DNA of 64,000 bases from a phage, in assembly GCA_026066175.1 (NCBI GenBank), contig GCA_026066175.1_4721.1. One strand, given 5' to 3'. Position numbers and translations under genes: made by a program. Under the pieces are notes generated by a model. It made no database searches and was not told where the DNA came from. It saw only the letters and a program-made list of their open reading frames with translations. Within the stretch, counting starts at the first letter, position 1, and each line of letters opens with the position of its first letter. Below are positions 9,754-59,905 of this stretch, in pieces.

Positions 9754-10464
9754 TTACCCCCTCAGAATCGCTTCTGTTTCGCTGATCGTATCCGCAGGAT
9801 AAACCAAACTACTGTCGATGGCGTTATTGACATAACCACCCATTAAGTTGGTGATGGTGTTTGTACCGCTATCGATGATGTTTCGTAATCCGATATCGAT
9901 GGCTTTTAACGTGCTGCGTTCCTCATCCGAAAGCAAACGCCATGCCCGACGACGGTCGTTGGGATCACGCGTGGTGATAGACGCCAGAACAGAATAAATG
10001 CTGCTGTCTGCGTTCAGCTTAACTCCGGCTAATTTTGCAGAGGTATACAACAACTGGTATTTCTCTTTCTCGGTATACCACCATGGTACCTTACCGAGTG
10101 TGTAGATCTCGTTATACATCAACCAAGGAAAAGAGTTGCGCATAACAACATCGGTCGATACCAACACGGTATCACCTGGAAGAAAGACAAATTCATAAAA
10201 CGGTTGACCATCCATGGTAATCTCACGGATGTCGGACGGGTCGATATGGAGCTGGGTCAATGCGTGGCTGACACCATACTGACCATCAGGAAGAAGAATC
10301 GGGCAGCATGCACATACCCGGTTCTCGCTCCCGATGATAGATAAACCCAATCCTTCGTAACGGACGGGTGTCAGAATTGAACACCCGCCTCGTGTCACAA
10401 CGGATTTATCTTCTTGTATGTCCCAGTCCGCCAGTACCGCAGCACCGTTGCGGACAAGCGCCAT
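9754..10464 (-). CDS. hypothetical protein
   Basis: 236 aa ORF; ATG immediately after the TAA of the upstream gene with GAGGTG SD. Confidence 0.65.
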   Translation of the reverse strand: MALVRNGAAVLADWDIQEDKSVVTRGGCSILTPVRYEGLGLSIIGSENRVCACCPILLPDGQYGVSHALTQLHIDPSDIREITMDGQPFYEFVFLPGDTVLVSTDVVMRNSFPWLMYNEIYTLGKVPWWYTEKEKYQLLYTSAKLAGVKLNADSSIYSVLASITTRDPNDRRRAWRLLSDEERSTLKAIDIGLRNIIDSGTNTITNLMGGYVNNAIDSSLVYPADTISETEAILRG

Positions 10465-12278: not shown

Positions 12279-13409
12279 TTATTTGGCTTCATTAAAATAA
12301 ATATCAACGGCACGTTCCGTTGCGTAGAGAAGACCCAGATTCACGGTCCCTACCACTTCCGGTGAACCGATGATACGGTTAGCGATACTGGTGCCACTGA
12401 AGATAGCATCAAGGGTGTGCCCGTCTTCGGTTTTGTTCACACCATGACCCACGGAAGAGACAACGGATTTCGCCTGTGCGGCGAAGGTACCTTTATCCCC
12501 CATTCCCGCACCAAGGTCGTAACGCATGAAAATACGGATCGCGATCTGGTTCTCACCTAACGGATTACCGTCTATTCTCACGTTACTGTTATTGATGCGT
12601 CCCGTTGTTGCTTCGTTGAGTTTCAGTTCCTTAACACGTTTAGCTCGCGCCTTATCAGCGTCACCCACAAGTGCTGCCATGGTTTCGCTCATGTCTTCAA
12701 TCTGAGCGCGGTACAACACATCGATCTGTACGACTTCACCATGCACGTCAGCGCGTGGGTTATACTGACTCATACGGCGTAACGCTTCAACCGCTTCCTG
12801 ACTTTCATCGCTCAGATCGGTTGCAATAGGTTCTTCCAGTGTTGCCAGGATCGTCCGAGGTTCAACATGATCGCCGATTTTCACCAAACCACGAATGTTG
12901 AGATGAGCGTCAACAATGAGCGTACGGCTCTTAATCGATGGGGTTACGAGACGATCGGCAAGATTGTCGAAGATATACGAACTGTCCTCGTGCGTTTCTG
13001 GAATATCCAGAATACCAACCAGAGACAACACGCCTGCGCGCCAAACAACCTGACCTGGGTTCCACCAATCCCGTTTAAAATAAAGACGATGGAAAACCAC
13101 TACATCCTGGTCCTTAACGCGATCCCCGACTTTATAATCGGTAATGAGATCGTGAGGATAATACTTACCTGGTCCTTTCCCGATTATCGTACCGAGTTGG
13201 AAAACCTCTTCCCCTAATTCTGGATCGTCGTATTGTATCGTAAGCGCTGTTTTGGTGACCTTCTTCACAACACCATCGCCTTGAGCAGCTGCTGCGAAGA
13301 GTTTACCAACACGATGCGCGATAACAGTCTCGCCACCAGTGCGCCATGGTTGTACGTCGTAACCTTCAGCGGCTATCATGCGGTTGTGTTGGATGCCTAT
13401 AAACACCAA
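12279..13409 (-). CDS. multisubunit RNA polymerase beta-like subunit, central fragment (possible downstream exon)
   Basis: By-eye alignment to bacterial RpoB: FIGIQHNRMIAA resembles the conserved ANRALMG segment; IRIFMRYDLGAGMGDKGTFAAQAKSVV resembles [26 protein letters not shown]. Track start is TTG with no SD and the frame is open for 8 codons upstream, consistent with an exon. Not database-verified. Confidence 0.5.
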   Translation of the reverse strand: MVFIGIQHNRMIAAEGYDVQPWRTGGETVIAHRVGKLFAAAAQGDGVVKKVTKTALTIQYDDPELGEEVFQLGTIIGKGPGKYYPHDLITDYKVGDRVKDQDVVVFHRLYFKRDWWNPGQVVWRAGVLSLVGILDIPETHEDSSYIFDNLADRLVTPSIKSRTLIVDAHLNIRGLVKIGDHVEPRTILATLEEPIATDLSDESQEAVEALRRMSQYNPRADVHGEVVQIDVLYRAQIEDMSETMAALVGDADKARAKRVKELKLNEATTGRINNSNVRIDGNPLGENQIAIRIFMRYDLGAGMGDKGTFAAQAKSVVSSVGHGVNKTEDGHTLDAIFSGTSIANRIIGSPEVVGTVNLGLLYATERAVDIYFNEAK

Positions 13410-13733
13410 TCTCTTGGGCGAATTTAGTTCTTATTCAGTATTAACATACCGTTACCGAAATAAGACTGAGATTAGATTGTTCAGATAAGGTCGTTAATCT
13501 TATCCCGGAGGTGATGATAGGCACATCACCTCCCGCTTACGTTCTCACGCAAGAGCAGACTATATCACATCTCGTTTCAAACGGTGCTTCTTCAGCACCT
13601 CAACGAGAGTTCACTTCTTCCCAGCGCATCCAGCGCCATTCTCTTATCCAAGGAGAATGCCTCACTCGAGGGGTACAGGGGGATGAATCCCTTAGTCGTT
13701 GAACCGTCACCCTAGAACGTTTCACAACGATCC

Positions 13734-14945
13734 TTAGGCGATTGGCTGCGGATTACCCTTGGCCTGCGGACCACGAACTTTTGTCGCGGTCAACTCTTCA
13801 TTTTTAAAGCCTGCTTCACGAGCAATACGTCTCGCTTCTCGCACGTCTAACGTTTCCGTTTCCGCTTTGGCTGAAGGCAGCATTGGGCGTCCCCGCAATT
13901 CAATGAATCTCGTCCATACGTCACCGTATAAACGGACCCGCTCTTTGTAAACAGAATAGTAGATATAACGTTTTCCGTCAGGAAATTTAGTCATTCCATC
14001 CGACTTTAAACGGTAATTGAGTAACGTAGTAGATATACCCATTTCTTCAGCGCAATCGACGGCCGAAAGGTACAACAGAGGTACATCATTTTCAGGAATG
14101 ACGACAATAGCACGTTTGTTGGTTGTCTTCTCCAACTCCAGGATACTATCTTCGACTTCTCGCCATGGCGTCTCATCAGTAACCCACTTAACTTGATAAC
14201 AACCATTAACGACAGGTTGGTTCTTGTCGTTAACGTACATCGACGCAGTGGATAACTTAACACCAATGTGATTCGCGAATTCAGTCAATGATTCGAAAAG
14301 ATGAATCTCTTTTGTTATCGTTGACCTTGCAATCACACCCTTACTTCCCGTATCCGTCAACGTTGCTAACTCGTATTTGGTGGGAATACGCCATGGTTCA
14401 TCGCCGTAATCTTTGCGGTACTGCTTACGTTCAGGAAACGCTCGCTGTTTGCCTCTATAGACACGATGATGAATGAAGTCGATATTCACACCAAGATCGC
14501 GTGCCGCTTCCGTCATGGATGGATATCTGGTTACAACACCGGTATCAACATCACGAACCTGAATAGGTTTACCGTAGGCAGCAATTGAACGTTTACGCAT
14601 GTTCATAATGCGAGCATGCTGATTGTTCTCTTTCTGCGTAACCCATTCAAGATTGTCATTCTCGGCGTTACCGTCGGGATCAAGGTAGTTATTAAGTCTG
14701 TTGCCGTCCTTGTGGTTCACATGGAGCAAATGCGCATCATCGATGTTACGGAACGTTAACATTAGAAGCCTGTGCATGGAACGGTAAACCAATGTTCCAT
14801 CGTGACCTCGAAACGAATAACGATAATACCCAGCAATGATGGTGGGCAAATATTCAAACTTCGATTCCTTGTTACGCAATGTTCCATCTATGGATATCTC
14901 CAGGAACGGGAATTCCGGTACGGTCTTAAATACCTTCTCACTCAT
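13734..14945 (-). CDS. HNH homing endonuclease with NUMOD-like DNA-binding repeats
   Basis: HVNHKDGNRLNN...NLEWVTQKENNQHA HNH motif near the N-terminus; three helix-turn-helix-like repeats (TEAARDLGV, TEFANHIGV, VDCAEEMGI). AAGAGGAA SD before the ATG and a TATATTAC-type motif ~45 nt upstream. Confidence 0.8.
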   Translation of the reverse strand: MSEKVFKTVPEFPFLEISIDGTLRNKESKFEYLPTIIAGYYRYSFRGHDGTLVYRSMHRLLMLTFRNIDDAHLLHVNHKDGNRLNNYLDPDGNAENDNLEWVTQKENNQHARIMNMRKRSIAAYGKPIQVRDVDTGVVTRYPSMTEAARDLGVNIDFIHHRVYRGKQRAFPERKQYRKDYGDEPWRIPTKYELATLTDTGSKGVIARSTITKEIHLFESLTEFANHIGVKLSTASMYVNDKNQPVVNGCYQVKWVTDETPWREVEDSILELEKTTNKRAIVVIPENDVPLLYLSAVDCAEEMGISTTLLNYRLKSDGMTKFPDGKRYIYYSVYKERVRLYGDVWTRFIELRGRPMLPSAKAETETLDVREARRIAREAGFKNEELTATKVRGPQAKGNPQPIA

Positions 14946-14985
14946 TGACTATATTCCTCTTGTGCAGTGAAACTAACTACACTTT

Positions 14986-14997
14986 CGTAATATAGCC
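14986..14997 (-). promoter_or_regulatory. candidate early promoter motif upstream of the HNH gene (GGCTATATTACG on the transcribed strand)
   Basis: Plus-strand CGTAATATAGCC in the 75-nt gap between the beta-like ORF stop and the HNH start. Confidence 0.4.
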
Positions 14998-15020
14998 TTA
15001 ATTCTGTTTACATTGAAGCC

Positions 15021-18000
15021 TTAATCATCTCTATCAGCAGCAGGTACTGCAAGTGCTGATGTACTCATTATTGACGAGCTACCATCCGTTTTCTCGTCGT
15101 AGGGTTTCGTTTCACCGTATACAGACACAATGTTTGCGTTAGGTGCGAGGTAAGCAGAAATACCTACGTCCCCACTATCCTTCGTACCTTCGGATACAAC
15201 ACCAATGTCCGACTTGTCGTACTCACGATCGCGTGCGCGTCGAAGCGATGTTTTCGAACGACCCCCGATACCGGTCATCGTTGCTTCTTCACCCTGCTTG
15301 ATATCCAGCATCGGGTTGGTTTCATCGATGACGATAGAAGCACTGTCGTCAAGGATTTGGTTCCAAACGCTCACCGGACTGATTGAGATCTTCTGTCGGT
15401 TGCCTTGGCTGCTGTTCTCGTTTTGACGAATAGCACCAACCAGATCCTTATACACCAACTCAGCGAACTTATCGTACGTTTTGAAGCGCTGGTAGTTCAC
15501 GTCGTTCGTGTTAGGTGCCCAATCGTCCAGAAGCAGTTCAACCGCACGTAATAACAACATGGCGAAATCAGTCGGTTCGCCCATGTTCTGTAATAACGTA
15601 CGACTTACCGGGTCGACGAAAAGACGCTCCATGAGTTCAAGTTCGCGAAGATGACGAACCTTAAGACCTGCACCATCGACAACGTTAAAATAGATATCCC
15701 GATTGTCGAAAGCACCTCGAGCGTAACCAATGTAGTTACGGTATTCGTTGAATCCGCCTAACAACAATGTCGTCATTCGATCATCTTTACTGAAGATCAA
15801 ACTTTCATCGTCGAAGCTCACCGCGAATTCATCCGATGCTAATCCCATACGAGAACCACGAGGTACCGTACGGTAGTTCGCTTTAAGATGTTCTAATAAC
15901 GGTGTAAGACCACCTAAGTAACTTAACACAACACCAACCGGAATACGTACGCCCATGAACTCAAGGTCAGCGGCTTCGATGGGCATCTTCGCGGCATTGA
16001 TACCGAAGAAATCAGGGAACGTTCCAACCGGCGTTGGGGTTTGATTCGGTTCGTAAACGTATAACTGATTCTGACCATCCACCGCCAGGAATTCGCCGTT
16101 GGTGTTTTTGGCGAACGTTAAGAATCCACCCGCCAGCTGTTCGGTGAATAAATCTTCACCGATGTGTTCCGGCAACGTTTTGATATCGAGGCGTATGTCC
16201 CAATCCGCAAATTGGATTTGGGTGTAGTTACGTGCAAGCACCGCGAAGTAATACGGAACTTTGACAGACGGATCAAAGACGTTACCACGTTTTAAGGTGG
16301 TTAAGGGCGAGGTTTTATCGTAATACATCGCTGTGAGTTGACGTGTTAACCAACGACCAGCATTATTAACCACGCGTTCTGAACGCTTAACGAACACCTT
16401 ACCGTAGGCGGTACTCAACGCAACTTCGGATGACGATACCTTTCTGATTGGTTTATCGACACGTTGTTTACGCATTCGATATTTAATGCCGTTAACGACA
16501 TAAATGCCGTCCTTACGAACCTTCGGTAACATCACCGGGAACGTGGTCGGAACACCGCCTACCGGAGCCAGCTTGATCGTGATGACCTGGTAATCACCCA
16601 TCACGTCAACAACATCTTCAACTTTATATCCGGTAACAGGATAGCCCGCTTGCTGCACCGCCACAACGGCTGCTGCGATGTCCTTTTGCATGACATGTTC
16701 GACGTAGTGTTTATCCCATACGGCAAGCGTCGATTTGCACAAGCTCTTATCAACGATAACGTCCGCTTCCGGCATCACCTTCTCAGGTGCTAATTTCGCG
16801 GCTTTTGGTTTAACCTCAACGTATTCAGCAAGCGTGAGTCCAGAACCGTCAGGTGCTTCAATTTCATGAATCGCGTCAGCGTTACGCATCGCTGCTTTAT
16901 ATTGAACGCCGCTTAATTGACCAGCATCCGCGAGGTCGCTTGCACGTACCAGCACTGCATCGGATAACGACTGAATATATTCACCGTGCGTTTTCGGTAA
17001 CGTTGCCGCATCGAAGACATCAACTTTTTCTTCCGGCATGTCATCGTTGACAACCTCAAAGAGATCATCGGTGATGTCTTGATCTTCGTCCGGTTGAAAA
17101 TCGGGCTGAACTTCAACGCCAGGGACTTCACGAACATCTTCAAACGCACGTTCAACAACCGCGTTCCATGCTTCAGCGTCGTCATCTTCATCCGATCCTC
17201 CGATCAACTCGCTTTCCAGTTCATCGGGGTCAAGAACGGTATCAAGGTCCTCACCGTTAGGAAGCACGACATCACGTTCATCGTACTCCGCATCGGGACT
17301 GTCTGCGAGAATATCACGCTCTTGACGAAGAACCTGCTCCTCTTCTTGTTTCTGTTCTTCTTCATTGGCGCTCTGCGACCACAGACGGGTTACCGCCATC
17401 ATCCAACGACGCTGGAACGTTTCAAGCGTTGTCTTATCAAGTTCCTCGCCTTCCTTCGCTAAACCCGAACGCCATTCTTCCATTAAACCAAGATTCAGAG
17501 TAAAGAAATAGACGCCGTCCGTAAATACAACGTTAAGCTTATCCAGCGAAGCACGGTCCAATGATACCATCGTGCTGTTCTCACGATCGACACCTAACCA
17601 ACGGAAGAAGTCAAAGAACGACAGCTCCTCGGAGGTGGCAAAATTCATGAGGTTATTACGGGTTGGGGCTTGTTGTGTCGTACGCATCAACGATATCTTC
17701 GGTAACGTCGACGGGATACGGAATAACAAGAACTGCTGACGGTCGCTTTGTTGGGCGATCTCGTTTGCTTGCGTCCAAATCGTTTTACGCACGTTGAACC
17801 ATTCATCATACCAACGGGTCAGTGTCGGACGATAGATGTACATGTGGTTAAGATGCGCATAGTTAGCCACGATCTGGGCGTTGATGTTCTTCTCAACCTT
17901 GCTAAGATCGGTGACCAAACGAAAACGACGATGCGATGCACGGTAATCCAGTTTCGCACGCGGTAGCTGGAATCGCTGATCGCGTCGAGGTGCGCCTTGC

Positions 18001-18230
18001 TTGGTTGCAAGATCATCCGCGAATGATATCCAAAGCTGGGCGCTTTCTTTGCTCAGCATGTATTCGTTTTCAGGAGGACCGATTAACGAAGGATCGGTTG
18101 CTGTATAATGATAAACCGCATAACGCGGCAGCTGCAAAAGCTGCACCAAACGCAATCTAGGTGATAATAACTCTTGATAACGTCGTACACCGAATTGTCT
18201 GTAGTAATCAAGGTATTTAAGTTTTGCCAT
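15021..18230 (-). CDS. multisubunit RNA polymerase beta-like subunit, N-terminal fragment (possible upstream exon; ORF tail may be intron-encoded)
   Basis: 1069 aa ORF starting 4 nt after the beta-prime fragment stop. C-terminal RSKTSLRRARDREYDKSDIGVVSEGTKDSGDVGISAYLAPNANIVSVYGETKPYDEKTDG resembles the RpoB segment ...[44 protein letters not shown]. Contains a strongly acidic insertion around 17030-17380. By-eye comparison only. Confidence 0.5.
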   Translation of the reverse strand: MAKLKYLDYYRQFGVRRYQELLSPRLRLVQLLQLPRYAVYHYTATDPSLIGPPENEYMLSKESAQLWISFADDLATKQGAPRRDQRFQLPRAKLDYRASHRRFRLVTDLSKVEKNINAQIVANYAHLNHMYIYRPTLTRWYDEWFNVRKTIWTQANEIAQQSDRQQFLLFRIPSTLPKISLMRTTQQAPTRNNLMNFATSEELSFFDFFRWLGVDRENSTMVSLDRASLDKLNVVFTDGVYFFTLNLGLMEEWRSGLAKEGEELDKTTLETFQRRWMMAVTRLWSQSANEEEQKQEEEQVLRQERDILADSPDAEYDERDVVLPNGEDLDTVLDPDELESELIGGSDEDDDAEAWNAVVERAFEDVREVPGVEVQPDFQPDEDQDITDDLFEVVNDDMPEEKVDVFDAATLPKTHGEYIQSLSDAVLVRASDLADAGQLSGVQYKAAMRNADAIHEIEAPDGSGLTLAEYVEVKPKAAKLAPEKVMPEADVIVDKSLCKSTLAVWDKHYVEHVMQKDIAAAVVAVQQAGYPVTGYKVEDVVDVMGDYQVITIKLAPVGGVPTTFPVMLPKVRKDGIYVVNGIKYRMRKQRVDKPIRKVSSSEVALSTAYGKVFVKRSERVVNNAGRWLTRQLTAMYYDKTSPLTTLKRGNVFDPSVKVPYYFAVLARNYTQIQFADWDIRLDIKTLPEHIGEDLFTEQLAGGFLTFAKNTNGEFLAVDGQNQLYVYEPNQTPTPVGTFPDFFGINAAKMPIEAADLEFMGVRIPVGVVLSYLGGLTPLLEHLKANYRTVPRGSRMGLASDEFAVSFDDESLIFSKDDRMTTLLLGGFNEYRNYIGYARGAFDNRDIYFNVVDGAGLKVRHLRELELMERLFVDPVSRTLLQNMGEPTDFAMLLLRAVELLLDDWAPNTNDVNYQRFKTYDKFAELVYKDLVGAIRQNENSSQGNRQKISISPVSVWNQILDDSASIVIDETNPMLDIKQGEEATMTGIGGRSKTSLRRARDREYDKSDIGVVSEGTKDSGDVGISAYLAPNANIVSVYGETKPYDEKTDGSSSIMSTSALAVPAADRDD

Positions 18231-18233
18231 GAG

Positions 18234-19913
18234 TTAGGCTCCACGAGGTCCCGTTAAGTTGCGTAATAGGAACGCAACCGTATCGTAACCAATATCAATG
18301 TTGAATTTATTTTTACCGCTTACCCAGAAAGCACGCTTCTTGTGCGAGTTGGTAATTTCGTCGATGGCTTCCATGGAATAAAGAACGTTAACAGAGACCG
18401 TATCACCGTCGAAATCGGCCCCGAGCCCGGCGAGAAACACTTGGCCGACTTGGGTCGTTTCTACGAACGATGCTTTTAATGACCAATCTGGGTATTCCCA
18501 CGCCATATAACGATAGCCTTCCATCGGTTGCCAGCTATCGTCGAGTTCTATTCTCGGTTTTGTATTAACCGTCGTTCTCACATAGCAAGTTAACGGTATA
18601 ACTGACTGCATCCCGGATACCGGATAACGTGTAACCATCGCACCGAGTTTATTCCAAAGATGGTAACCACTCAGATAAATCAACTCGCAATAGGTAATTG
18701 GGTGAACATTCGCACCAGGTTTGTTAAGCATCTCTGGTGGTAATTCACTCATACCACGGAACAGCCGGAATGAGTTGTTGTTCACATAGACCAAACAGAG
18801 ATAGCGACCATTCACCATGATAGGTTCGTTACGTACACCAGGATCGCTTAGGGTGTTTAATAAACGTTCGATGCCGTCCCAGGTTGTAAAGTCATCGATG
18901 GTATCTGGGTCTAGCGTGACACGTTCACGTTCCATCGTTTCGGTATCGATAAGCTCAGCTTCAGTAACATCGCGAACAAAGATTTCTTGTAATATCCCTG
19001 TACGTAACGCATGTTGCGTTATCGGAAGGGCTGCTTTGCTCATCTGGTATAGGCCGAGCTGTACAGACGTACACGATGTTTGGTTTGGAGAGCCAAGAAC
19101 TTCGGTCGTTGGAATAACTGCTGAAATAACGTTACGGGTTGAGTTCCAAACACGACGTGAACCGAACTTACCTTGGAAGATCCCTTTCTTACCCTGGAAC
19201 ATATCCAACAGCAATGCGTAGATATCATTGAAGGTTCTTTGCAGGCTCCAGCGCTGTCCGTCGTAGACAGGATCGTTGTAGTCCTTTAACCCATCGGGAA
19301 CGGTATTGGAGATAGCAAGGAAACGACGATAAAGCTCCGTGATTTCTTGTTCGCTTTCATACCCGCCTTCTTTTACTTCTATTTCACGAAGACCAGCAGG
19401 TAACACCAATAAATGACGGGTCATCGCTTTGAACATGTTTTCTTCGACAACTTTAATACGCAGTTCTCGTTGCGCTGAACCTGTTGAAACGAACATGATC
19501 TCCGCAACGTGTTGTGCGAAGAAACCGTAGCCGGTTTGTCCCGTTAACGCATCAGCGGCAACGAAATCACGTTGTTCTGGATCCCATCGCGCATAAGCTT
19601 TACCGGACATGATATCGCCATAAAGGTGTTTCAATCGAATAAGGCGATCGTAAATGACCGGATGCAAGATTTCCACTTTACACTCGATGACCGCAAAGCG
19701 GCGATCACGATCTTCGCTTCCCGCGCTCCCAAAAATGGTGTACGAATAAAAACCATCGTCATGGAAATTACCCGTGCTCGGGTCGCGGATACTCATGCTG
19801 GTAATCTTAGGAAGGAAACGCAACTGCTGCTTATCAAGATGCAGTATACTGATATTGAACGGCTCTCTGACTTTAGCCATGGATGCACTCCTTAAATAAG
19901 GCGGCGGTATCAT
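18234..19913 (-). CDS. multisubunit RNA polymerase beta-prime-like subunit, N-terminal fragment (virion RNAP-like)
   Basis: Contains GADFDGDTVSV (universal beta-prime catalytic NADFDGD motif), GIFQGKFGSRRVWNSTRNVI (cf. RpoC [20 protein letters not shown]) and LVLPAGLRE (cf. VLPPDLRP). The ORF ends ~50 aa after DFDGD, as expected for the split beta-prime of phiKZ-like phage RNAPs. Confidence 0.8.
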   Translation of the reverse strand: MIPPPYLRSASMAKVREPFNISILHLDKQQLRFLPKITSMSIRDPSTGNFHDDGFYSYTIFGSAGSEDRDRRFAVIECKVEILHPVIYDRLIRLKHLYGDIMSGKAYARWDPEQRDFVAADALTGQTGYGFFAQHVAEIMFVSTGSAQRELRIKVVEENMFKAMTRHLLVLPAGLREIEVKEGGYESEQEITELYRRFLAISNTVPDGLKDYNDPVYDGQRWSLQRTFNDIYALLLDMFQGKKGIFQGKFGSRRVWNSTRNVISAVIPTTEVLGSPNQTSCTSVQLGLYQMSKAALPITQHALRTGILQEIFVRDVTEAELIDTETMERERVTLDPDTIDDFTTWDGIERLLNTLSDPGVRNEPIMVNGRYLCLVYVNNNSFRLFRGMSELPPEMLNKPGANVHPITYCELIYLSGYHLWNKLGAMVTRYPVSGMQSVIPLTCYVRTTVNTKPRIELDDSWQPMEGYRYMAWEYPDWSLKASFVETTQVGQVFLAGLGADFDGDTVSVNVLYSMEAIDEITNSHKKRAFWVSGKNKFNIDIGYDTVAFLLRNLTGPRGA

Positions 19914-20053: not shown

Positions 20054-23000
20054 ATGGTAGATAAAACCCGTGTTGAGGGTGATGATAATTGGGATAACTG
20101 GGATGATGACTTCTCCCTGGATCTCGATTTTAACGAACCCAAAGACGATCGTAAACCGATAACACGCTTTGCGGTAGGCGCGGTTAAAGGTGCTGCTGAG
20201 GATCTTACTTCCTACGAAAGAATGAAGGAGATCGCCAGAAACGCATTACCTAAGGGTTATAGCGACGGTATGGATCTTATCGATTCCGCCGTCGGATCCA
20301 CGAAGGAACTATACAATGAAGCCGTTCGTGACATTCTTCCGAAGGTACAAAGCTCAAAACGGTTAGCCGCACAACTGACGAAAAAATACCGTGCGAGCAT
20401 GCCCGATTTCTCGAAGAAAATCATCGAGCGTTGGGAGCAGGAAGCCAAGGAAGAAGACGAACGTAAGCAGGCGGAAGCCGATCTCAAACAACGCATGGCG
20501 AATGCAGGTGATGAAGAAATCGCTCGCAAGGTCGCTGAAGCGTTAGGCGAAGCGGCTAACCAGAACGCGGATCAGTTTGCGGAACAACAAGCAAAAGAAA
20601 GTATCCGTGACGATATTGCTGATAAACGTTATAATGTCACCAACAAACAGATGAGCGCGATGCAGGAAGGCATCGCCAAGATGGTTGGTTTCAATAACGA
20701 ATTCGCCGCACGCTATATGCGTAAAAGCCTGGAACTGAAATACCGTTCTTTGGCGATACAACGCGCGAGTTTCGATCAGCATAAAAAGTTAGCCGAAGTC
20801 TATATCGGTTTATTACAGAACATCCAAAAGAACACAGCTTTACCGGATGCGGCTAAAGCAAAAATGTCGGAAGAATTTCGTCGTACGGCGTACCAACGTT
20901 TCTTTGGTAACGCATTGAATGCGATGAGTTCTTTCGAGAACCGTTTCTTTGCTGATGTTAAGAAAAACCTTGCAACCAATGCACTGGGTGCGTTAAAAGG
21001 TGTTGCGTCTGGTGCGCACGACGCCCTCTCTGGTTTAAACGAAGCACGTGACTCGATGTCCATGATGGACGGCATGGGGTCAGAAGGCGATATTAAGGAA
21101 ATGCAAGGGAAGATGTTGGGTCAGTTAATCGGCTCAACCGTTGCACCATGGATGGCTAATAAAGGCATGACGGCATTGCGGGATTTAGCAAAACGCCATC
21201 CTAACGCTAAATTCGCCAACGCGTTAAAAGCGGTCGATCAAGGCGGTGAAGCTGCCGCTTATACAACGCGTAACGTCGGGAAACTGCTGCAAGAAGATAT
21301 TCGTAAAAACGAATTCAACCTCAGCGATCCTTTCTACAAACAGTTCCTCCGTGGAGCTGGACGTTGGGCCTTCAATCTGGACGGCGGTCGTAACTTCCGT
21401 GTAATGAACGACACCGCAGAGACATTAGCCGAACAAACGTCTTTCGATGGTTTAACCTATCGTAGCATCAACGAGGTCATTCCTGGATTTCTTGCTCGGA
21501 TACTGAAAAGCACTGAAGGTATCCGTACCGGTGAAAGCGATCCTGATTACGAGGTCTATGATGGCATCAGTGGGCAATTCGTTGCTCAGCGTACCCGCGA
21601 GCAAGGCGTAACCGACACGCTCTTTAACAAACGCTCGTTCGGTTATTACGCCGGTCGTTTTAATGAAGTTATCTCGGTTATCGATCCTGATAAACAGCTG
21701 TCAGAAAAGGCAAGGAAAGCCTTGGCTAAACAGCTGGCACGCGACAGCGATGCGAACATGGCTTTCGATCCTGCTCGATATACCGACGAAAGTAACTTTG
21801 ATCGCAGCATCGATAGAGACGCCATTAAAGAACTTTCTGCGTATTTCAAAGATCGTTACGGTATTCGTGATGATGTTGATGATGAAGGTAACCGTCAGCA
21901 GGTTATTGAAAACCGTGGGCAGTACTACACGGAACGTAACCGCGCTGACCTGCGGTACGGTAATCTGAAATCATTACAGCCGGATATCCAACGCAACCTT
22001 AACCTTCTGAAGCGTACCGGTGATATTCAATACCTGGAACGTATCGGGATCGTAACAAGAAACAGCGATGGCAGTTATTCGGTTAATCACGATCGTTACT
22101 TCTCTGAAATCGATCGATACATCGACCGACCGGAATATGCTGACCGCGGCGATGTTAACACGCGACTCAGTGCCCAACAGACCAGGGCGTTAGCGTTAGG
22201 CTATCGTGATGACGTTGCATCAAACACTGACGTACAAAATCGTGCGTTACCAAACCTTGATCGAACAACGGTCGGGACGGTAAACATCGATGAGAACATC
22301 GGGTACGAGAAATGGTGGAACGACGCGGGTGTTATCACCACATCGCTTGAAGACCAAAATCGCGCATGGCAAGAACTCTATCTTGAAGCGCTTCAGGAAG
22401 CTTCACATCAGCGTGAAACAATGCTGGAACTTCTGAAAGCGATCTCAGAAAAAGAATGGGGTGGTAACGGCATTGGACTCCAGGGCGAACCTGGCGGGGA
22501 AGAAAGTGATGATCGCTCTATGTTAAGTCGGATCTCCGACTTAACACTGGGTAAAGCCGGTAGCTATGCCTGGAAAGGTGCGAAAGGGGCTACCAAGTTC
22601 GGATGGAAATGGGGTCGAAAAGCGGCAACATGGGGCGCGAAACGTACATGGGGAAGCTTCGTAAACTCAGCGCGTCGAATTATCAACTTCAACCGTTTTG
22701 TGTTTGGCGCATTATCTAAGGTCGATCAAGTTCCGTTTGACATTTACGTTAAAGGTGAAGATCGTCCACGTATCTTAGCTGCGAAACTTCGTCAAGGTCT
22801 TTATTTCGATGAAGCCACCGGCAAAGCCGTCAAACGGATGAAGGATATTAAAGGTCCGTTAGTTGATGCTGATGGCAATATCGTCATCAGCGCTGAAGAT
22901 ATCGAGAAGGGCTTGATTACGCGTGCTGGACGCGCCTTCGAAAACTCCGGTTTGAAAGCATGGGCACGTGAAGGTATTAACGGTATCACCACGGTCTTAA

Positions 23001-33292: not shown

Positions 33293-33967
33293 TTAACCCT
33301 CGTCGAGATTATTCTGGAGATGCATTGCGGTGAGAATAACGCCAACTGCTGAAACCGATTTTGCTTTACTGTCTTCCGGAAGCTGTTCCAGACTTACCGT
33401 ACCGGTTTCTAACAACATGCGGTTCATCGCGTTGAACTTCTTATCGTCACCACCACGCGCCTGCATCAACTCTCGGTTTACGTTCGGCATCGACCGTCCT
33501 AACGTCGCCTGCATTTCTGGCTGGCTCCACGTTGAGCCTTTACTGTCACCCGTTGGCTGGTTGGTCAACTGGTCTTTGGTGTTGTTGTTCTTCGGGATCG
33601 ATATCTTAGCGCTCAACGTTTCAGCTTGGCGGCGGTTAGGAATCAAATACAATCGGGTTGGACGGTCACGAAGCACCAGCTGGCCGGTCTTCTGATCGGT
33701 AAGATAAATACGTTGGAAAAAAGGAAAACCGTATTTCTTTCCCACTTCCAAGGCACGCTTTATCGTGACCTCATTTTTGTTCATGTTGGGTACCCAGATG
33801 GGGAGGATTTCTTTCTTATCCCGACATAAACGCATATAAGCATCAAACGTCTCATCATCGATTTCAGCGAAACGTTTTTTGTAAATAGCGTATGTCGGGC
33901 TCGATTCTCCCACCAGGTCTTTGATGTACCCAAGAATGAATTTCTCTGCTGCAGCGCGGTTGGACAT
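33293..33967 (-). CDS. hypothetical protein
   Basis: 224 aa ORF. Confidence 0.6.
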   Translation of the reverse strand: MSNRAAAEKFILGYIKDLVGESSPTYAIYKKRFAEIDDETFDAYMRLCRDKKEILPIWVPNMNKNEVTIKRALEVGKKYGFPFFQRIYLTDQKTGQLVLRDRPTRLYLIPNRRQAETLSAKISIPKNNNTKDQLTNQPTGDSKGSTWSQPEMQATLGRSMPNVNRELMQARGGDDKKFNAMNRMLLETGTVSLEQLPEDSKAKSVSAVGVILTAMHLQNNLDEG

Positions 33968-41781: not shown

Positions 41782-41813
41782 CCCTCCTCCTTCCCTTACG
41801 GGTTGGAGGAGGG
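41782..41813. terminator. GC-rich hairpin (CCCTCCTCC-TTCCCTTACGGGTT-GGAGGAGGG) followed by A16
   Basis: Perfect 9-bp arms; the inner loop can itself form CCC/GGG around a UUAC (GUAA on the opposite strand) tetraloop; between convergent genes. Confidence 0.6.
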
Positions 41814-41888
41814 CTATGCCGTAAAGCAAAAAAAAAAAAAAAATGATAGTCACGAGCCCTCCAATGAAGGAGAGCCGTGACCGTCAGT

Positions 41889-46629: not shown

Positions 46630-47805
46630 CTACTTCGTTTTCGCCGTTATCGGCTGCGATACTGTAATCTCGACCCGATCGACATCGGTACGTTTAACGA
46701 TGATAAGGCTGCGTCCATCACCAAATGGTTCTGAAACCTTACAAGCCTCTTTAAGATTTTCGAGAATCTTGCCATATGGTTCAAACACCGCAAAACCGGA
46801 ACTAGCGTCGATTCTTATTAGACTTACACGCGTACCGTTTACGGTAATGGTGTCATCCGTCTTGAATTCACAACAGGAGGGTAGACGGAACTGGCCGGGA
46901 ATACCGGCTACGTATGCCTCACCACCGAACATTTCTATTAATGTCACCGGTTTGAATGCTTTCTCTGGGAAAGCACTATTAAGGGTATCGTTTCCATTCA
47001 CAAACCAGATCGTTACTTTATCTTCGGAATACGCTAGACGGTACGGTTGGGTTGCGGACGCTTGCGCTTTATGCTGGTTGAATAACTTTGATTTTGTCGC
47101 AATTACAGCACGACCTTGGGCATCAAAGTACAGAACTTCATACCCAACACATCCGATAAACACGCGACGGTTATTAAGTTCCGGAATTCTGACTACTAAT
47201 GCATTACCATCTTCCGTCGGTGTAATACCACGTAGAATAATCGATTCGTTATTCAATACTGAGTTGTCCACGACGATGCTTCGCATTACCGCTGGGGTTA
47301 CTGTTTTATCTGCGGTAGGTTCAGGTTGCTCAGCAATGCGGTCAAAAGGTTCGATGGATACCATGGGAACGAAGTATTCAACTATATGCTTGTTTGCAGC
47401 ACCGACGTCCATGACGGTGATCTGCAAACGCGTAGCATCCGAATTCAATGCTTGTTTCACACGTTCTGCATTAGGAGTATCACGGTCAATATGAATCAAG
47501 GCTTTTACCACACCGTCGTCTTCCAACCATCCCGTTAAAACGCGACCGACGATATCGTTCACGTCACGAATCGGGAAGCACAGTTCAGCGCCATCGAGCA
47601 CCGCTTCGATTTTACTGCTAATGACGGGCACCTTACCGTCGTTAAGATGCGCCAGCAGACCGGTTACTGCACCTTCACTAACCGGATGTTTTGTCGTCGT
47701 ACTGACCAACGGTACGATAAAACGATCTTCGCTGTATTTCTCTGCACCACAGATAACCGGGACTTGAGGACAATAATCAACCAGGCCCCATTCAACAGTA
47801 TTCAT
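46630..47805 (-). CDS. hypothetical protein
   Basis: ORF track 46630..47883 trimmed to ATG (MNTVEWG...) with AAGGAA SD, which removes the overlap with the upstream gene. Confidence 0.55.
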   Translation of the reverse strand: MNTVEWGLVDYCPQVPVICGAEKYSEDRFIVPLVSTTTKHPVSEGAVTGLLAHLNDGKVPVISSKIEAVLDGAELCFPIRDVNDIVGRVLTGWLEDDGVVKALIHIDRDTPNAERVKQALNSDATRLQITVMDVGAANKHIVEYFVPMVSIEPFDRIAEQPEPTADKTVTPAVMRSIVVDNSVLNNESIILRGITPTEDGNALVVRIPELNNRRVFIGCVGYEVLYFDAQGRAVIATKSKLFNQHKAQASATQPYRLAYSEDKVTIWFVNGNDTLNSAFPEKAFKPVTLIEMFGGEAYVAGIPGQFRLPSCCEFKTDDTITVNGTRVSLIRIDASSGFAVFEPYGKILENLKEACKVSEPFGDGRSLIIVKRTDVDRVEITVSQPITAKTK

Positions 47806-47839
47806 AACGTTTTTTCCTTCTTGGGTTTTGTACGAGTTG

Positions 47840-48454
47840 CTAACGGCGTTTTGTACCGACCTTCCCGTTTCGATGGTCATCAAGAATACGCCATTCTTCG
47901 AACAGGAGTTCAGCTGCGAAATAACCGACGGCGATGCTGTCTATTGCATGCTCATCAAGATTCGCTAACACAACACCGTTCCTAGGTGTGATGTTCATGA
48001 GGTTCAACACTTTCTGGCGAACATCATCCTTACCGACACGGGACGTCATAATCCCAACAGCGCGTTTTGCGCTTCGGTTATCAACCCCTAAGAAAGACAC
48101 CGTAGGGTCAAAATCGATAACCGTCGTCTGAATCGCTGAAAACAGCTCACTGAGCGCCATACCGCTTTGCTTGAAACGACCGATGAATGGCGTCTCACAA
48201 GCGACCGCTTGCGGCCGGTACTCTTGCAATAACGTTGTCAGCGAACGACGGTGTTCTTGGATACGTGCGGCACGATTACCGTATCCAAGCGCAATATCAC
48301 CATCGGGATCATATCGACGTGAAGCGTGCCATGTCCCCGCATACAGCAGTTCAATATCTTCGACACGCACGTCCAAACGTAGTAACGACGCACCGAGCGT
48401 ATCGGTGCCAGGGTCGATTGCCAGAATATCGTAAGCGTATTCTGGTGGGATCAT
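47840..48454 (-). CDS. RuvC-like Holliday junction resolvase
   Basis: YDILAIDPGTDTLGASLL (RuvC motif I, cf. ILGIDPGSRVTGYGV), AVACETPF (Glu) and LDEHAIDSIAVG (cf. DAADALAIA); start ATG overlaps the upstream stop (ATGA). Confidence 0.7.
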   Translation of the reverse strand: MIPPEYAYDILAIDPGTDTLGASLLRLDVRVEDIELLYAGTWHASRRYDPDGDIALGYGNRAARIQEHRRSLTTLLQEYRPQAVACETPFIGRFKQSGMALSELFSAIQTTVIDFDPTVSFLGVDNRSAKRAVGIMTSRVGKDDVRQKVLNLMNITPRNGVVLANLDEHAIDSIAVGYFAAELLFEEWRILDDHRNGKVGTKRR

Positions 48455-56014: not shown

Positions 56015-56873
56015 GGTTTCTGTTTTCCTTGGTTTGTTGTGGTCCCAGGTCAGAGATATCCCAACGGATATAACCAACATCACGGATTCGCTCGGCTATT
56101 TCTTCGAATTGTGAATCACGACTGATAACCGGTAACCATTCCCCTTCTCGGGTTATCTTAACTTCGGCGATCTGTAAGCTCATGTTCCAACGAACGTCAT
56201 AAACCAGCGCGTAACCAAGAGGATGAACAAGCCCATCCTGGTTATACATCTTCAAAAGACCTCTTACGTCTTCGCTGCGCGGTAATTCCGCCATAGCAGG
56301 ACGTACACGTTGAAGTCTCTTTGTGGTATCGTATCCTAGCTCAATATCTTTCCAGCCCGTCATGACGTAAGGAACAACGTTGCGGCGACGGAGTTGATGG
56401 TTGTGAGTGGTTTCTTCGGCGGTAAGGTGTACCCAACCGAGATCGCTGTACGCCACGAACCGCGCTCCTTCTCCATCGAGCACTGTGTGCTCATCTAACG
56501 CTGCTGCAACACCATGGCCTGCGTAATACGGCGGAAGAACGTTCAGCATTTTAATACGGCTTTCTTGACCGGTATGGTCAGGGTCGATATGCGCGTAGTA
56601 ATAATTACGGCTTACCGGACGACCTTCCGCCATACGTCCACGGAAGACAGGGTCCTGCATTCCAAGCGGATGGTAATACGCGAGCTGTTGTTCGTCACCT
56701 TCCCCGATGACCAACAAACGATCTTCACGACTTGGTGTGCTAGGATCTTTCACCGTGATGTAGGTAACAATCACTTTCAGATTGTCTAAAATGTCCTGTG
56801 GAAGTTTCTCTAAATCCCGTGCGTCGTAAATACGATTAACAACAACGTTTGCAATGTGTTTTGGTAAGCTCAT
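55977..56873 (-). CDS. paralog family B protein (298 aa), unknown function
   Basis: Shares blocks with three upstream paralogs: AYYHPLGMQDPVF, GWVHL, VVPYVMTGWKD, KRLQRVRP, GLVHPLGYALVYDVRWN, WLPVIS, GYIRWDISDL. Confidence 0.6.
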   Translation of the reverse strand: MSLPKHIANVVVNRIYDARDLEKLPQDILDNLKVIVTYITVKDPSTPSREDRLLVIGEGDEQQLAYYHPLGMQDPVFRGRMAEGRPVSRNYYYAHIDPDHTGQESRIKMLNVLPPYYAGHGVAAALDEHTVLDGEGARFVAYSDLGWVHLTAEETTHNHQLRRRNVVPYVMTGWKDIELGYDTTKRLQRVRPAMAELPRSEDVRGLLKMYNQDGLVHPLGYALVYDVRWNMSLQIAEVKITREGEWLPVISRDSQFEEIAERIRDVGYIRWDISDLGPQQTKENRNHVDENDSKEQSL

Positions 56874-56953
56874 TTTAGATCTCTCTTTGTTATTGGTAAA
56901 ATAAATAACGGCATAAAGGGGACATAACTGCCCCCGTGTTAAATATCAACTGT

Positions 56954-57796
56954 TCACGCTTTCAGATCTGAAATATCCCAACGTACGTAACCGGTACGCT
57001 CAATGTCGTCAACCAGTTGCTTGGTTTGATTTTCAACACCAACGACAGGCACCCAATTTAAACGCCAGCGCCCACCGACATTAACCTCAACACGCTGCAG
57101 ATCTTCATTCCAACAAACCCCATTCGGTCTCAAAAAGCCCATCGGGTGGACGAAGTCCTCATCGTAATCTTTCAATAGCGCGAGAATATCGCTTCGGCTA
57201 TAAGTCTTCACGCTTGCTAGATGTACGCTTTGTAGCTTATCGCGCAGACCCCAACCATACTCACAATCACGCCATTCAGGCATGACAACCGGCAGTACAT
57301 TCCGATGACGGATGTATTTTGCCGCTTCAGCAATATCAGCTGGAAGATGTATCCAACCTAAATCGCTGTTAGCAATAAAATCAGGACTGTCCATTTCATG
57401 GATGTAATGATCGTAAAGCGTAGCAGCGAGTCCTTCAGCAAGCACGTTTGTTGGAAGGAGGCAGTTGGCGCTTATCTTGAAATCGAATACATCGGCATCA
57501 GGATCCACATACGCGTAAAACCCGCGTGCGAAAGCGCCGCCATGTTCTTTGAAGCAGTACTGGAATACATTGTTTTGCATTCCGATGGGGTGGTAGTAAG
57601 CCAACACACGTTGTTCGCCGTCCGTGATTTCAATGAGCTGATCTTTCGGCTTCGGCCAGGTGATCTTCTCAACACCGCAAACGCTGACGATCTTTCGTAG
57701 ATTCACCTTGATATGTTCCGGGAGATGCCCGATTTCATTTTCATGATAAACACGGGTGATAACGGTATTGATAACCGGCTGTGGTTTAGCTATCAT
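56954..57796 (-). CDS. paralog family B protein (280 aa), unknown function
   Basis: AYYHPIGMQNNVF, GWIHL, VLPVVMPEWRD, DKLQSVH, FVHPMGF, WVPVVG, GYVRWDISDL; GAGGAA SD. Confidence 0.6.
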   Translation of the reverse strand: MIAKPQPVINTVITRVYHENEIGHLPEHIKVNLRKIVSVCGVEKITWPKPKDQLIEITDGEQRVLAYYHPIGMQNNVFQYCFKEHGGAFARGFYAYVDPDADVFDFKISANCLLPTNVLAEGLAATLYDHYIHEMDSPDFIANSDLGWIHLPADIAEAAKYIRHRNVLPVVMPEWRDCEYGWGLRDKLQSVHLASVKTYSRSDILALLKDYDEDFVHPMGFLRPNGVCWNEDLQRVEVNVGGRWRLNWVPVVGVENQTKQLVDDIERTGYVRWDISDLKA

Positions 57797-57836
57797 TTAT
57801 CGTTTCCTCTTCGTTTTGTGGTTATTGATATTCGTA

Positions 57837-58703
57837 TTACGGTTTAAGATCTGCGATGTCCCAGCGGACATAGCCAACACGTTCGATTTCGCGAGCAAGG
57901 TCTTCGTTGTGAACGTCTACCCCAACAACAGGTAACCAGTTCCCATCTTTGCTGATCTTCACATGAACGATGTTTTGCGAAGTGATGAACTGATTAACAT
58001 CGTGCACCAACGCATAGCCTAACGGATGGATAAAGCCTTCAGCGCAGCATGAATCACGAAGAACGCTCAACATGTCGACGGCTGAAGGGCTAACGCAACG
58101 GACAGGGCGTACGCTTTGCAATTTGTCGGATGCCGCTTGGGCAACGCGTGCATCACGCCATCCCGTCAAGTATACCGGTTTTATATCCCGTTTTAGTAGA
58201 TGTTCGATCTGGATCGCTGTGTCATTATGAACATACACGCAGCCCTGTTCGGTTTCGGTGTCGTAGTCACCTTCATTAAACGCGTTTATTCGGGCAGGAT
58301 AAACCTTCTGGTCTATCGTCACGGCAACCCCTTCAGCGAATGTGGTCAACGGAAGAAGACGTTCTAAACACGCGATTGGATAATCCGCTGATGCTCCAGG
58401 ACGAATATGCGCCAGCATTCCCCAACCATCAGGGAATCCATGTCGGTACATGTATTGCTGGAATACCTCATCCTGCATTCCTAACGGGTACCAGCGTGCA
58501 AGCCGCTGCTGCTCACCGTCCTGAATAACAAAAAGCATTTCTTTGCGTTTAGGCCAGCGGTGATGTTCTACGGCCAAGCCCTCAACGATCGGTTTCAAAT
58601 TGGCTTTGATATGCTCAGGAAGTTGATCCACCTCTTCACGACGATAAATACGATCGATGAGGGTAACGTCGATCTTCTGGCCCATCATCTGCATTAAACT
58701 CAT
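57837..58703 (-). CDS. paralog family B protein (~288 aa), unknown function
   Basis: ORF track 57837..58844 trimmed to ATG (MSLMQMM...) with AGGAG SD; ARWYPLGMQDEVF, PVYLTGWRD, DKLQSVRP, FIHPLGYALVHDV, WLPVVG, GYVRWDIADL. Confidence 0.6.
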   Translation of the reverse strand: MSLMQMMGQKIDVTLIDRIYRREEVDQLPEHIKANLKPIVEGLAVEHHRWPKRKEMLFVIQDGEQQRLARWYPLGMQDEVFQQYMYRHGFPDGWGMLAHIRPGASADYPIACLERLLPLTTFAEGVAVTIDQKVYPARINAFNEGDYDTETEQGCVYVHNDTAIQIEHLLKRDIKPVYLTGWRDARVAQAASDKLQSVRPVRCVSPSAVDMLSVLRDSCCAEGFIHPLGYALVHDVNQFITSQNIVHVKISKDGNWLPVVGVDVHNEDLAREIERVGYVRWDIADLKP

Positions 58704-58770
58704 TTTTATTTCTCCTGCTGTTTTACGATGCATCGTTTTGCTCCTGTGGTTCTTTGTTTTCGGTATCGTG

Positions 58771-59523: not shown

Positions 59524-59607
59524 GGATAAAGTTCCTTGTTTTCACGTTGTTTGATTAACGTACTGATTTCTATTTGACAGAAGACGAACATTGTACGCAT
59601 CTATCAC

Positions 59608-59622
59608 GTAAGTAATATAGCC
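59608..59622 (-). promoter_or_regulatory. candidate early promoter motif (GGCTATATTACTTAC on the transcribed strand)
   Basis: Plus-strand GTAAGTAATATAGCC, ~90 nt upstream of the start at 59523; 20-mer TAAGTAATATAGCCGTGAAA is identical to 44343-44362. Confidence 0.45.
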
Positions 59623-59734
59623 GTGAAAGGATTTGTATTACAGAAAGGATATTTGTTTTCTAAGAAGGGATGGTTACCAGGAAGGAGGTTATCGATAGGT
59701 GTATTTCAAGGAAGGTTTAAGAGGATAGGTATTG

Positions 59735-59905
59735 TTGTTTTGTTTATCTTAGTTTGTCTATGTATTCGTTTAATGTGTTATCTTAGTTTTAATGATCTTT
59801 TCAAAAGTGTTATCATGTTTATCTTAGGTTATATTTTAATTGCTTTAAGTTATTTGTTTTATCTATCTTGTTATCTTGTTTAAGTTGTTAATTGCTTATC
59901 TTCAA
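59735..59905. repeat. cluster of at least 8 direct repeats of TTATCTT(A/G) in an AT-rich noncoding region
   Basis: Copies read at ~59745, 59779, 59805, 59819, 59860, 59865, 59872, 59894; embedded in a ~800 nt region with no credible ORF. Confidence 0.5.

Follow-up and report, generated by a model that had tools for sequence, protein, structure and literature searches.

The locus considered here, at positions 12,279 to 19,913 of a 64,000-nucleotide stretch of phage DNA (contig GCA_026066175.1_4721.1 of GenBank assembly GCA_026066175.1; the whole stretch is called the window below), encodes fragments of a multisubunit RNA polymerase (RNAP), and the question that it raises is whether each break between these fragments is a boundary between subunits. 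The locus has four open reading frames (ORFs) of 559, 1069, 403 and 376 aa, and a preliminary description of this DNA, the ORFs of which are indeed present, read it as a split polymerase with a truncated β′ fragment and an acidic insertion in the β-like fragment. A split virion RNA polymerase (vRNAP) and an N-terminal extension of its β subunit are established features of phiKZ-like phages, and the finding as first written therefore adds little. One of the breaks, however, is of another kind, and the region as a whole is very probably the core of a virion multisubunit RNA polymerase in which the β gene is interrupted by a group I intron with a homing endonuclease (Table 1). The features under study all lie on the minus strand, with the exception of the gene for a giant virion protein.

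The only close match to the window among 50,697 phage records is Escherichia phage vB_EcoM_Goslar (NC_048170; 87% DNA identity), which belongs to the phiKZ type of jumbo phages and forms a nucleus (PMC12908238). The window is colinear with Goslar from about 194.8 kb to the end of the record and on through the first 18 kb of the record and, as judged from these matches, comes from a new Goslar-like (phiKZ-type, nucleus-forming) jumbo coliphage. In Goslar, β is encoded by gp207 as an uninterrupted protein of 1448 aa. The 1069-aa ORF, called at 15021..18230, corresponds to residues 1–1069 of gp207 (95.7% identity) and the 376-aa ORF, called at 12279..13409, to residues 1073–1448 (99.5% identity); both fall on a single profile, phrog_3148 (1424 positions), at positions 2–1050 (E 1.4e-289) and 1055–1422 (E 1.4e-118). 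The gap between them is no boundary between subunits. It is occupied by a group I intron that harbours an HNH homing endonuclease gene, and removal of this intron yields a 1448-aa ORF that is colinear with both Goslar gp207 and phiKZ gp178 (32% identity to the latter in a multiple alignment). On this alignment evidence, a single β gene of 1448 aa has the 1069-aa and 376-aa ORFs as its exons.

The identities of the genes are directly supported by family and structure-based profiles. A Pfam scan of all eight cluster ORFs found no RNAP domain; these proteins are too diverged for Pfam, and PHROG searches and profile searches against the PDB were therefore used. A single-sequence PDB search with spliced β returned no meaningful hit, and a profile built from seven full-length orthologues matched bacterial RpoB chains only, with Thermus RpoB (E 1.3e-9) recognized in four colinear stretches, which bears out the proposed RpoB homology. 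The main stretch covers profile positions 1053–1178, the HDD–ANR (DD motif) region, and the weaker stretches at 572–588, 975–1041, and 1364–1420 are colinear with it, each being non-significant when taken alone. The matching elements comprise IP..DG.F..NG, the NPL...GPGG...PEG fork region, the HDD–ANR region, and GDK...NKG; the GDKGTFAAQAKS motif in exon 2 is the counterpart of RpoB GDKxxxRHGNKG and is aligned to residues 822–880 of Thermus β.

The intron boundaries are directly supported by the alignment with intron-less alleles. The junctions read ...GAUGAU (Asp-Asp)/UAAGGC at the 5′ end and AAUUCG/CCC AAG AGA (Pro-Lys-Arg) UUG at the 3′ end (a slash marks the splice site), so that the last base before the 5′ splice site is U and the last base before the 3′ splice site is G. 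The predicted exon 1–exon 2 junction (15024/13418) reads ...GCUGAUAGAGAUGAU-CCCAAGAGAUUGGUG..., and the spliced β protein runs ...ADRDD-PKRLVF..., as compared with ...EHDD-PKRINF... in phiKZ. PhiPA3 and 201phi2-1 carry introns at exactly this point, immediately behind the two conserved Asp codons (the region of E. coli RpoB D675), with the same junction (...GATGAT/ and ...CG/), and four relatives retain ...UYCG/ as the 3′ end. As the first three intron bases are UAA, the stop codon of the 1069-aa ORF is not a natural gene end, and the unspliced frame stops at once. The primary transcript would adopt the ribozyme fold and excise the intron by itself, so that ...ADRDD is joined to PKRLVF..., and unspliced RNA would give only the truncated 1069-aa product.

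The ribozyme core matches the full length of the Rfam model RF00028 (positions 1–253) with 51.4 bits (gathering threshold 50; E 7e-11). Across four related introns, nine base pairs in P2, P4, P6, and P8 stay paired despite changes on both sides, few pairs break, and the alignment fold also shows the P7 pairing GACUA/UAGUC; that the ribozyme fold is conserved is thus directly supported, and the nine compensatory pairs, with changes contributed by essentially one divergent sequence (contig L014), argue for selection on it. A leader of 78 nt separates the 5′ splice site from the endonuclease ORF, which is bracketed by a 12-bp stem formed between UGUAAACAGAAU and AUUCUGUUUACA; the stem is invariant in four relatives and hence has no covariation support. 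For P1, the putative guide would pair through GGUC with GAU/U, with a U·G wobble at the splice site. In 201phi2-1 and PhiPA3, ACAGUC pairs with GAU/UGU across the splice site, and it was by position and by analogy with these two phages that the putative guide was chosen from the eleven chance-level candidates of a brute-force search; the candidate pairing is absent from the predicted minimum-energy fold. A blastn search of phages with the 3′ part of the intron matched only a 32-nt conserved core element of the td introns of T4-like phages.

The nature of the break bears directly on an alternative in which a free-standing homing endonuclease gene truly divides β into polypeptides of 1069 and 376 aa, with no splicing and with assembly after translation. 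Free-standing endonucleases are known to split phage genes in T4-like phages, which counts for such an arrangement. A group I core with compensatory pairs nevertheless lies exactly between the two pieces, and, set against the uninterrupted gp207 of Goslar, the break is precise to the codon; the three residues PKR are encoded ahead of the TTG that might serve as a start codon for the 376-aa ORF and for which a ribosome-binding context was not identified. That split subunits are the rule in vRNAP (PMC5694885) speaks for two polypeptides, and the ORF-less introns at the same site in 201phi2-1, annotated there as a joined coding sequence, speak against them; altogether, a genuine split at this point is highly improbable, and a spliced β is preferred. 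An intein was ruled out, since UAA immediately follows the last exon 1 codon and the endonuclease ORF has a start of its own. A pseudogene was among the readings that were considered and rejected, together with the intein, the free-standing endonuclease, and a non-virion RNA polymerase (nvRNAP), to which we return below.

The 403-aa ORF within the intron carries the Pfam NUMOD1 domain (34.4 bits against a cut-off of 22.8; E 2.4e-8) and matches the HNH endonuclease family phrog_59 (E 2.6e-38), with further matches to I-TevI DNA-binding, I-HmuI NUMOD-like, and HNH_3 models that remain below the Pfam cut-offs. Its exact sequence was not on record when looked up, and its closest relative in the phage database is PhiPA3 gp210 (36% identity, E 4e-56), the catalytic His82 of which aligns with His78. 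The ORF has its own AGGA-type ribosome-binding site, and its start lies 78 nt after exon 1. Its last ~75 codons overlap the ribozyme elements P1′, P2, P3, P4, P5, and P6, with the UAA stop codon inside P6; this overlap may couple translation and RNA folding.

Birkholz et al. 2024 (PMC11620839) showed that PhiPA3 gp210 is encoded in a group I intron directly after two conserved Asp residues of the vRNAP β gene, that it nicks the homologous site in phiKZ gp178 (D1072, in the region of E. coli RpoB D675), and that PhiPA3 gains a competitive advantage from it. The window phage and PhiPA3 (gp211/gp210/gp209) share the gene, the insertion point, the flanking genes, a homologous endonuclease, and the layout of 5′ splice site, short leader, endonuclease ORF, ribozyme core, and 3′ splice site ending in G. 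They differ in that the window intron is longer (1605 nt against 1352 nt in PhiPA3), with a large P5 insertion, an extra 3′ hairpin, and an unrelated 5′ leader, and in that the endonuclease has 403 aa instead of 330 because it reads on through the ribozyme core, gp210 ending ~60 residues earlier. The window phage belongs, moreover, to a Goslarvirus-like genus with E. coli as host. I-HmuI, I-BasI, and I-TwoI likewise combine an HNH motif with following NUMOD-type modules inside a group I intron of an essential, highly conserved phage gene; the target here is an RNAP subunit gene and not a DNA polymerase or nucleotide-metabolism gene, and nicking is predicted only. By analogy with gp210, the endonuclease would nick intron-less alleles in co-infecting relatives, leading to homing and possibly to interference competition.

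Relatives of the endonuclease in metagenome assemblies (99%, 79%, and 72% identity, all of 403 aa) all occupy the same position in Goslar-like contigs (L012–L015). Between the window and contig L012 (6923–8529), the intron and its ORF are 96–100% identical where the exons are only 80–91% identical, which indicates a mobile and recently transferred intron; transfer between lineages is directly supported by this comparison. An immobile remnant, in which the ribozyme splices and the endonuclease is inactive or no longer homes, is distinctly unlikely in view of the same contrast, of the ORF, intact at 403 aa in three lineages, and of the conserved catalytic His. What such a remnant would explain is the divergence of the endonuclease body, which is only 58–78% identical at the nucleotide level to those in L014 and L015, against 85–100% for the ribozyme and the final ~150 nt of exon 1 (85–97% for the ribozyme), together with the ORF-less introns at the same site in 201phi2-1. 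With the intron regarded as mobile, the endonuclease appears, on these identities, to turn over faster than its ribozyme. Against intron-less Goslar, identity falls to 67–82% in ~150 nt on the 5′ side and 35 nt on the 3′ side of the site, from a background of 90–100%, and this dip looks like a footprint of co-conversion or of target divergence.

A second catalytic-centre site is filled in other members of the family. Goslar, phiKZ, and EL carry an HNH gene and a group I intron in the gene for the N-terminal part of β′ (β′N); in Goslar, the HNH gene is gp206, and the intron lies between GAT and TTC of AD/FDGD (Goslar sequence L001, 8914–10807). Goslar gp205–gp207 and their counterparts in the window are colinear and 87% identical in DNA, with β 96–99% identical and of the same 1448 aa, but the Goslar β gene is uninterrupted and its intron resides in β′N, and the window phage shows the reverse. 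The AD/FDGD site is empty in the window, where the first ~40 nt of the 3′ flank differ from Goslar exon 2 at a single base. The two sites (β DD and β′ DFDGD) are thus filled in different combinations among related phages: the window phage and L012 have the β Asp-Asp site occupied and the β′ AD/FDGD site empty, Goslar has the opposite, and L014 has both, with an ORF-less intron at AD/FDGD (1001–1425) and an HNH intron at the β DD site. Goslar-like coliphages might carry reciprocal intron “weapons” against each other's vRNAP genes, a tentative idea that we consider possible and somewhat unlikely.

Table 1. Features of the vRNAP locus and related genes, in coordinates of the window.
Feature	Coordinates	Strand	Counterpart or basis
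vRNAP β′ N-terminal subunit (β′N) gene, 559-aa ORF	18234..19913	-	Orthologue of phiKZ gp180, SPN3US gp240, Goslar gp205
DFDGD codons, residues 500–504 of the 559-aa ORF	18402..18416	-	Uninterrupted in the window
Exon 1 of β (βN), residues 1–1069, ending ...AVPAADRDD	15024..18230	-	Orthologue of phiKZ gp178, SPN3US gp241, Goslar gp207
Basic N-terminal domain of β, residues 1–283, pI 9.6	17382..18230	-	No detectable similarity to cellular β
Acidic segment of β, residues 284–401	17028..17381	-	Composition and shuffles
Conserved region of β, residues 402–570	16521..17027	-	Between acidic segment and start of β homology
Group I intron, 1605 nt	13419..15023	-	Nucleotide alignment with intron-less alleles; Rfam
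5′ strand UGUAAACAGAAU of 12-bp long-range stem, intron positions 11–22	15002..15013	-	Exact complementarity and cofolding
HNH–NUMOD homing endonuclease, 403 aa	13734..14945	-	Pfam NUMOD1, phrog_59, similarity to PhiPA3 gp210
Ribozyme core P2–P9, with large P5 insertion	13536..13959	-	Rfam RF00028
Stem partner AUUCUGUUUACA	13946..13957	-	Perfectly complementary to UGUAAACAGAAU
Putative internal guide GGGUC	13935..13939	-	Position and analogy with PhiPA3, 201phi2-1
P2 hairpin, 10 bp, GUGA loop	13911..13934	-	Directly 3′ of putative guide
Exon 2 of β, residues 1070–1448 and stop, with GDKGTFAAQAKS motif	12279..13418	-	Goslar gp207 and phrog_3148
Candidate β′ C-terminal subunit, 236 aa	9754..10464	-	Homologue of phiKZ gp176, SPN3US gp244, Goslar gp210
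Giant virion protein, 2233 aa	20024..26725	+	phiKZ gp181 homologue; phrog_3201 (E 2e-298) and endolysin families
β C-terminal small subunit (βC), 224 aa	33293..33967	-	Goslar gp196 (100% identical); SPN3US gp218 counterpart

The β′N gene encodes a protein that matches phrog_2986 “RNA polymerase beta subunit” (E 1e-179) and is 38% identical to phiKZ gp180 over 494 aa (tblastn, E 9e-98). Its start is most likely the second ATG, at 19880, giving a protein of 548 aa; this start is favoured because AAGGAG stands 7 nt upstream, the alignments with Goslar gp205 and phiKZ gp180 begin there, and the gene call in a relative also has 548 aa. A family profile of seven orthologues, run against the PDB, matched β′ of phage AR9 (7s01_d, E 8.6e-16), residues 211–355 of E. 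coli β′ (E 1.4e-6), and the RpoC1/γ chains of chloroplasts and cyanobacteria (E 6e-8 to 1e-5), so that the RpoC homology stands at the level of solved structures. The preliminary description had named two outcomes as counting against it, a failure of RpoB/RpoC profiles and an isolated DFDGD match, and the profile searches returned neither. It had also placed the end of the ORF ~50 residues after DFDGD; the distance is 55 residues, and the truncation is found likewise in all phiKZ-like phages. The β′N subunit would supply the Mg-binding DFDGD loop, with the remainder of β′ coming from separate genes, one a candidate at 9754..10464 and one outside the window. A natural division of β′ downstream of the NADFDGD loop is also seen in the RpoC1 (γ)/RpoC2 pair of cyanobacteria and chloroplasts; compared with that pair, the phage split lies nearer the motif, a second break turns what remains of β′ into two proteins, and sequence divergence is much greater.

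Adjacency to the giant virion protein gene had been offered as the ground for regarding this as the virion-packaged enzyme. The identification holds and its ground shifts: orthology and conserved gene order with the phiKZ gp181–gp180–gp178–gp177–gp176–gp175 set and with SPN3US gp240/gp241, and not with the non-virion set, make a stronger argument than adjacency, and on this evidence from homology the cluster is the virion RNAP of a Goslar-like phage. Mass spectrometry places the orthologues among the virion (head, ejection) proteins, and they co-purify as vRNAP (PMC5694885, PMC5105663, PMC10612078), with the products of SPN3US gp240/gp241 among those found in virions (PMC5694885, PMC5105663). 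Both enzymes of these phages are built from split β and β′ fragments (PMC5694885), a point in favour of a non-virion (middle/late) RNA polymerase; we give this next to no probability, since the genes are orthologous and syntenic with phiKZ gp180/gp178 and not with nvRNAP genes, the cluster stands among head genes and adjoins the prohead protease, and the solved phiKZ nvRNAP chains were unmatched in the PDB at E <= 1 with the single sequence and the β profile and were not among the best 60 of 89 matches of the β′N profile.

The SPN3US vRNAP comprises five subunits, βN, βC, β′N, β′M, and β′C (PMC5694885), of which four are located in the window (β′N, βN, βC, and a candidate for β′C). The candidate, a 236-aa protein, is 99.6% identical to Goslar gp210, 28% to phiKZ gp176 (E 4.5e-30), and 30% to SPN3US gp244, which was assigned as β′C from genetics, proteomics, and a weak HHpred match (PMC5105663). 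A profile of the gp176-like family found no match in the PDB, so the β′C role of 9754..10464 comes from the literature only. The 224-aa βC matches phrog_3233 “RNA polymerase beta subunit” (E 1.1e-65), and a single-sequence PDB search with it gave chance-level hits only. No homologue of β′M (phiKZ gp80, SPN3US gp42) was found among the window ORFs of at least 330 aa, and its gene presumably lies outside the window; of the subunit genes that the preliminary description left to be located, those at 9754..10464 and 33293..33967 are inside it. The phiKZ, 201phi2-1, and SPN3US enzymes (Thomas et al. 2016, Ali et al. 2017) are divided into βN, βC, β′N, β′M, and β′C, four of which are located in the window with β′C as a candidate, and share with the one described here a long N-terminal region of βN that is unrelated to cellular β and is followed by an acidic stretch, and a location beside the prohead protease and the giant lysozyme protein, at protein identities of only 28–38%.

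The acidic stretch of ~115 residues reported near 17030–17380 is present and measures 118 residues, with 45 D/E against 6 K/R, a net charge per residue of -0.33, and a pI of 4.05; none of 2000 protein shuffles reached 45 D/E in any 118-residue window, the shuffle maximum being 36. It had been described as an insertion in the β-like fragment. Similarity to cellular β begins only near residue 572, and the segment is therefore not inserted in the β fold but belongs to a ~570-residue N-terminal extension that precedes the β-homologous part. It is also family-wide: each of ten members compared (the window phage, phiKZ, PhiPA3, 201phi2-1, SPN3US, EL, Eowyn, pTD1, RSL2, and Goslar) carries, at residues ~285–385, a net charge of -14 to -24 within 60 residues. 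Among Goslar-like lineages, the codon differences in the acidic segment number 45 synonymous and 10 non-synonymous, a pattern close to that of the β core, and indels are absent, so that the segment is constrained by purifying selection; residues 402–570 are the most conserved part of β in these lineages, with 1 non-synonymous against 52–59 synonymous differences. A protein homologue search with the whole exon 1 protein yielded a single protein, the candidate list having probably been swamped by acidic low-complexity words, and a search with a β-core query returned mostly fragments.

The N-terminal region of SPN3US gp241, ~400 residues without β homology, has been proposed to target the pre-assembled enzyme into the prohead (PMC5105663). 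The basic domain (residues 1–283) corresponds to the propeptide that is removed in 201phi2-1 by cleavage at TFE-275, immediately ahead of the acidic stretch, and that SPN3US retains (PMC5694885). By analogy with SPN3US, prohead targeting of the pre-assembled enzyme is most likely the role of the extension in the window phage, and the acidic segment would then be a flexible, charge-conserved linker. The segment could instead be an active module, either a mimic of DNA that fills the DNA-binding cleft, leaving the polymerase inert while it is packed among DNA in the capsid (compare σ70 region 1.1), or a signal for packaging or ejection, as the preliminary description had suggested. Conservation of charge across the family where sequence is not conserved, purifying selection with no indels among Goslar-like lineages, and a semi-conserved acidic–hydrophobic motif (DITDDLFEVV in the window phage and DLEVTKLIIEKDPLE in phiKZ) all speak for an active module, as does the need of the enzyme to coexist with packaged DNA and to pass through the tail (PMC5694885). 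Between genera, however, the segment is poorly conserved in sequence, hardly alignable, and variable in length, structure prediction gave no usable model, and what has been proposed in print for the N-terminal region is head targeting and not DNA mimicry (PMC5105663); an active module is accordingly held to be unlikely, and a targeting extension with an acidic linker is preferred.

The genes around the polymerase follow the order giant lysozyme protein (divergent), β′N, β, a small gp177.1-like ORF, gp177-like, gp176-like, and prohead protease, and the same order is found in nine phages (Goslar, phiKZ (gp181 to gp175), PhiPA3, 201phi2-1, SPN3US, EL, Eowyn, pTD1, and RSL2). The giant virion protein has a lysozyme-like domain near its C-terminus and is transcribed divergently from the RNAP genes; within its gene, positions 22390..22631 are without a megablast match to Goslar and form a local hypervariable patch.

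Elsewhere in the window, positions 41789..41843 span both ends of the Goslar GenBank record (...237307 joins 1...); as the window runs straight across them, these ends are arbitrary, which fits a circularly permuted or terminally redundant genome. A segment of ~3.9 kb at 56024..59894 is without a megablast match to Goslar, which has ~1.5 kb there, and holds four minus-strand ORFs of 250–335 aa with no Pfam hits, the 335-aa ORF also being without a PHROG hit. At 46630..47883, a minus-strand ORF of 417 aa with a TTG start is without a PHROG family match and, by its position in the colinear alignment, appears to be the counterpart of the hypothetical Goslar gp009.

Several points weigh against the account given here of a virion polymerase with an intron-interrupted β gene. 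For splicing, nicking, and packaging in the window phage, the argument is purely one of homology, and these activities, like the role of the linker, are accordingly predicted. The Rfam score is barely above its threshold, the compensatory changes all come from essentially one divergent sequence, that of L014, and the proposed P1 amounts to three exon base pairs and a wobble, which are invariant in the relatives and without covariation. The endonuclease ORF crosses P2–P6 of the ribozyme, and translation could compete with folding. For the other subunits, the β′C label of 9754..10464 has weak published evidence and is unsupported by the profile search. An AlphaFold2 prediction of residues 1–570 of β from a two-sequence alignment (mean pLDDT 35) was uninformative on the fold or disorder of the N-terminal region, so that disorder of the acidic segment is read from composition only.

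For annotators, the consequence is that the 1069-aa and 376-aa “subunits” are one protein, and the family-wide acidic linker is an unstudied feature for a future vRNAP structure to explain. A mobile intron of the gp210 type is a known kind of element, found here in a new host lineage. To our knowledge, a competitive advantage for a virus has so far been demonstrated with no intron endonuclease other than gp210. The value of the locus is in this respect modest, in that it places a gp210-homologous intron in an E. coli phage lineage, with population-level evidence of recent movement. If the endonucleases of these coliphages act like PhiPA3 gp210, mixed infections would see two-way interference competition and intron exchange, and reciprocal intron weapons, if real, would bring the phenomenon into a genetically tractable E. 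coli system, for which the window phage and Goslar form a concrete, testable pair for intron-mediated competition.

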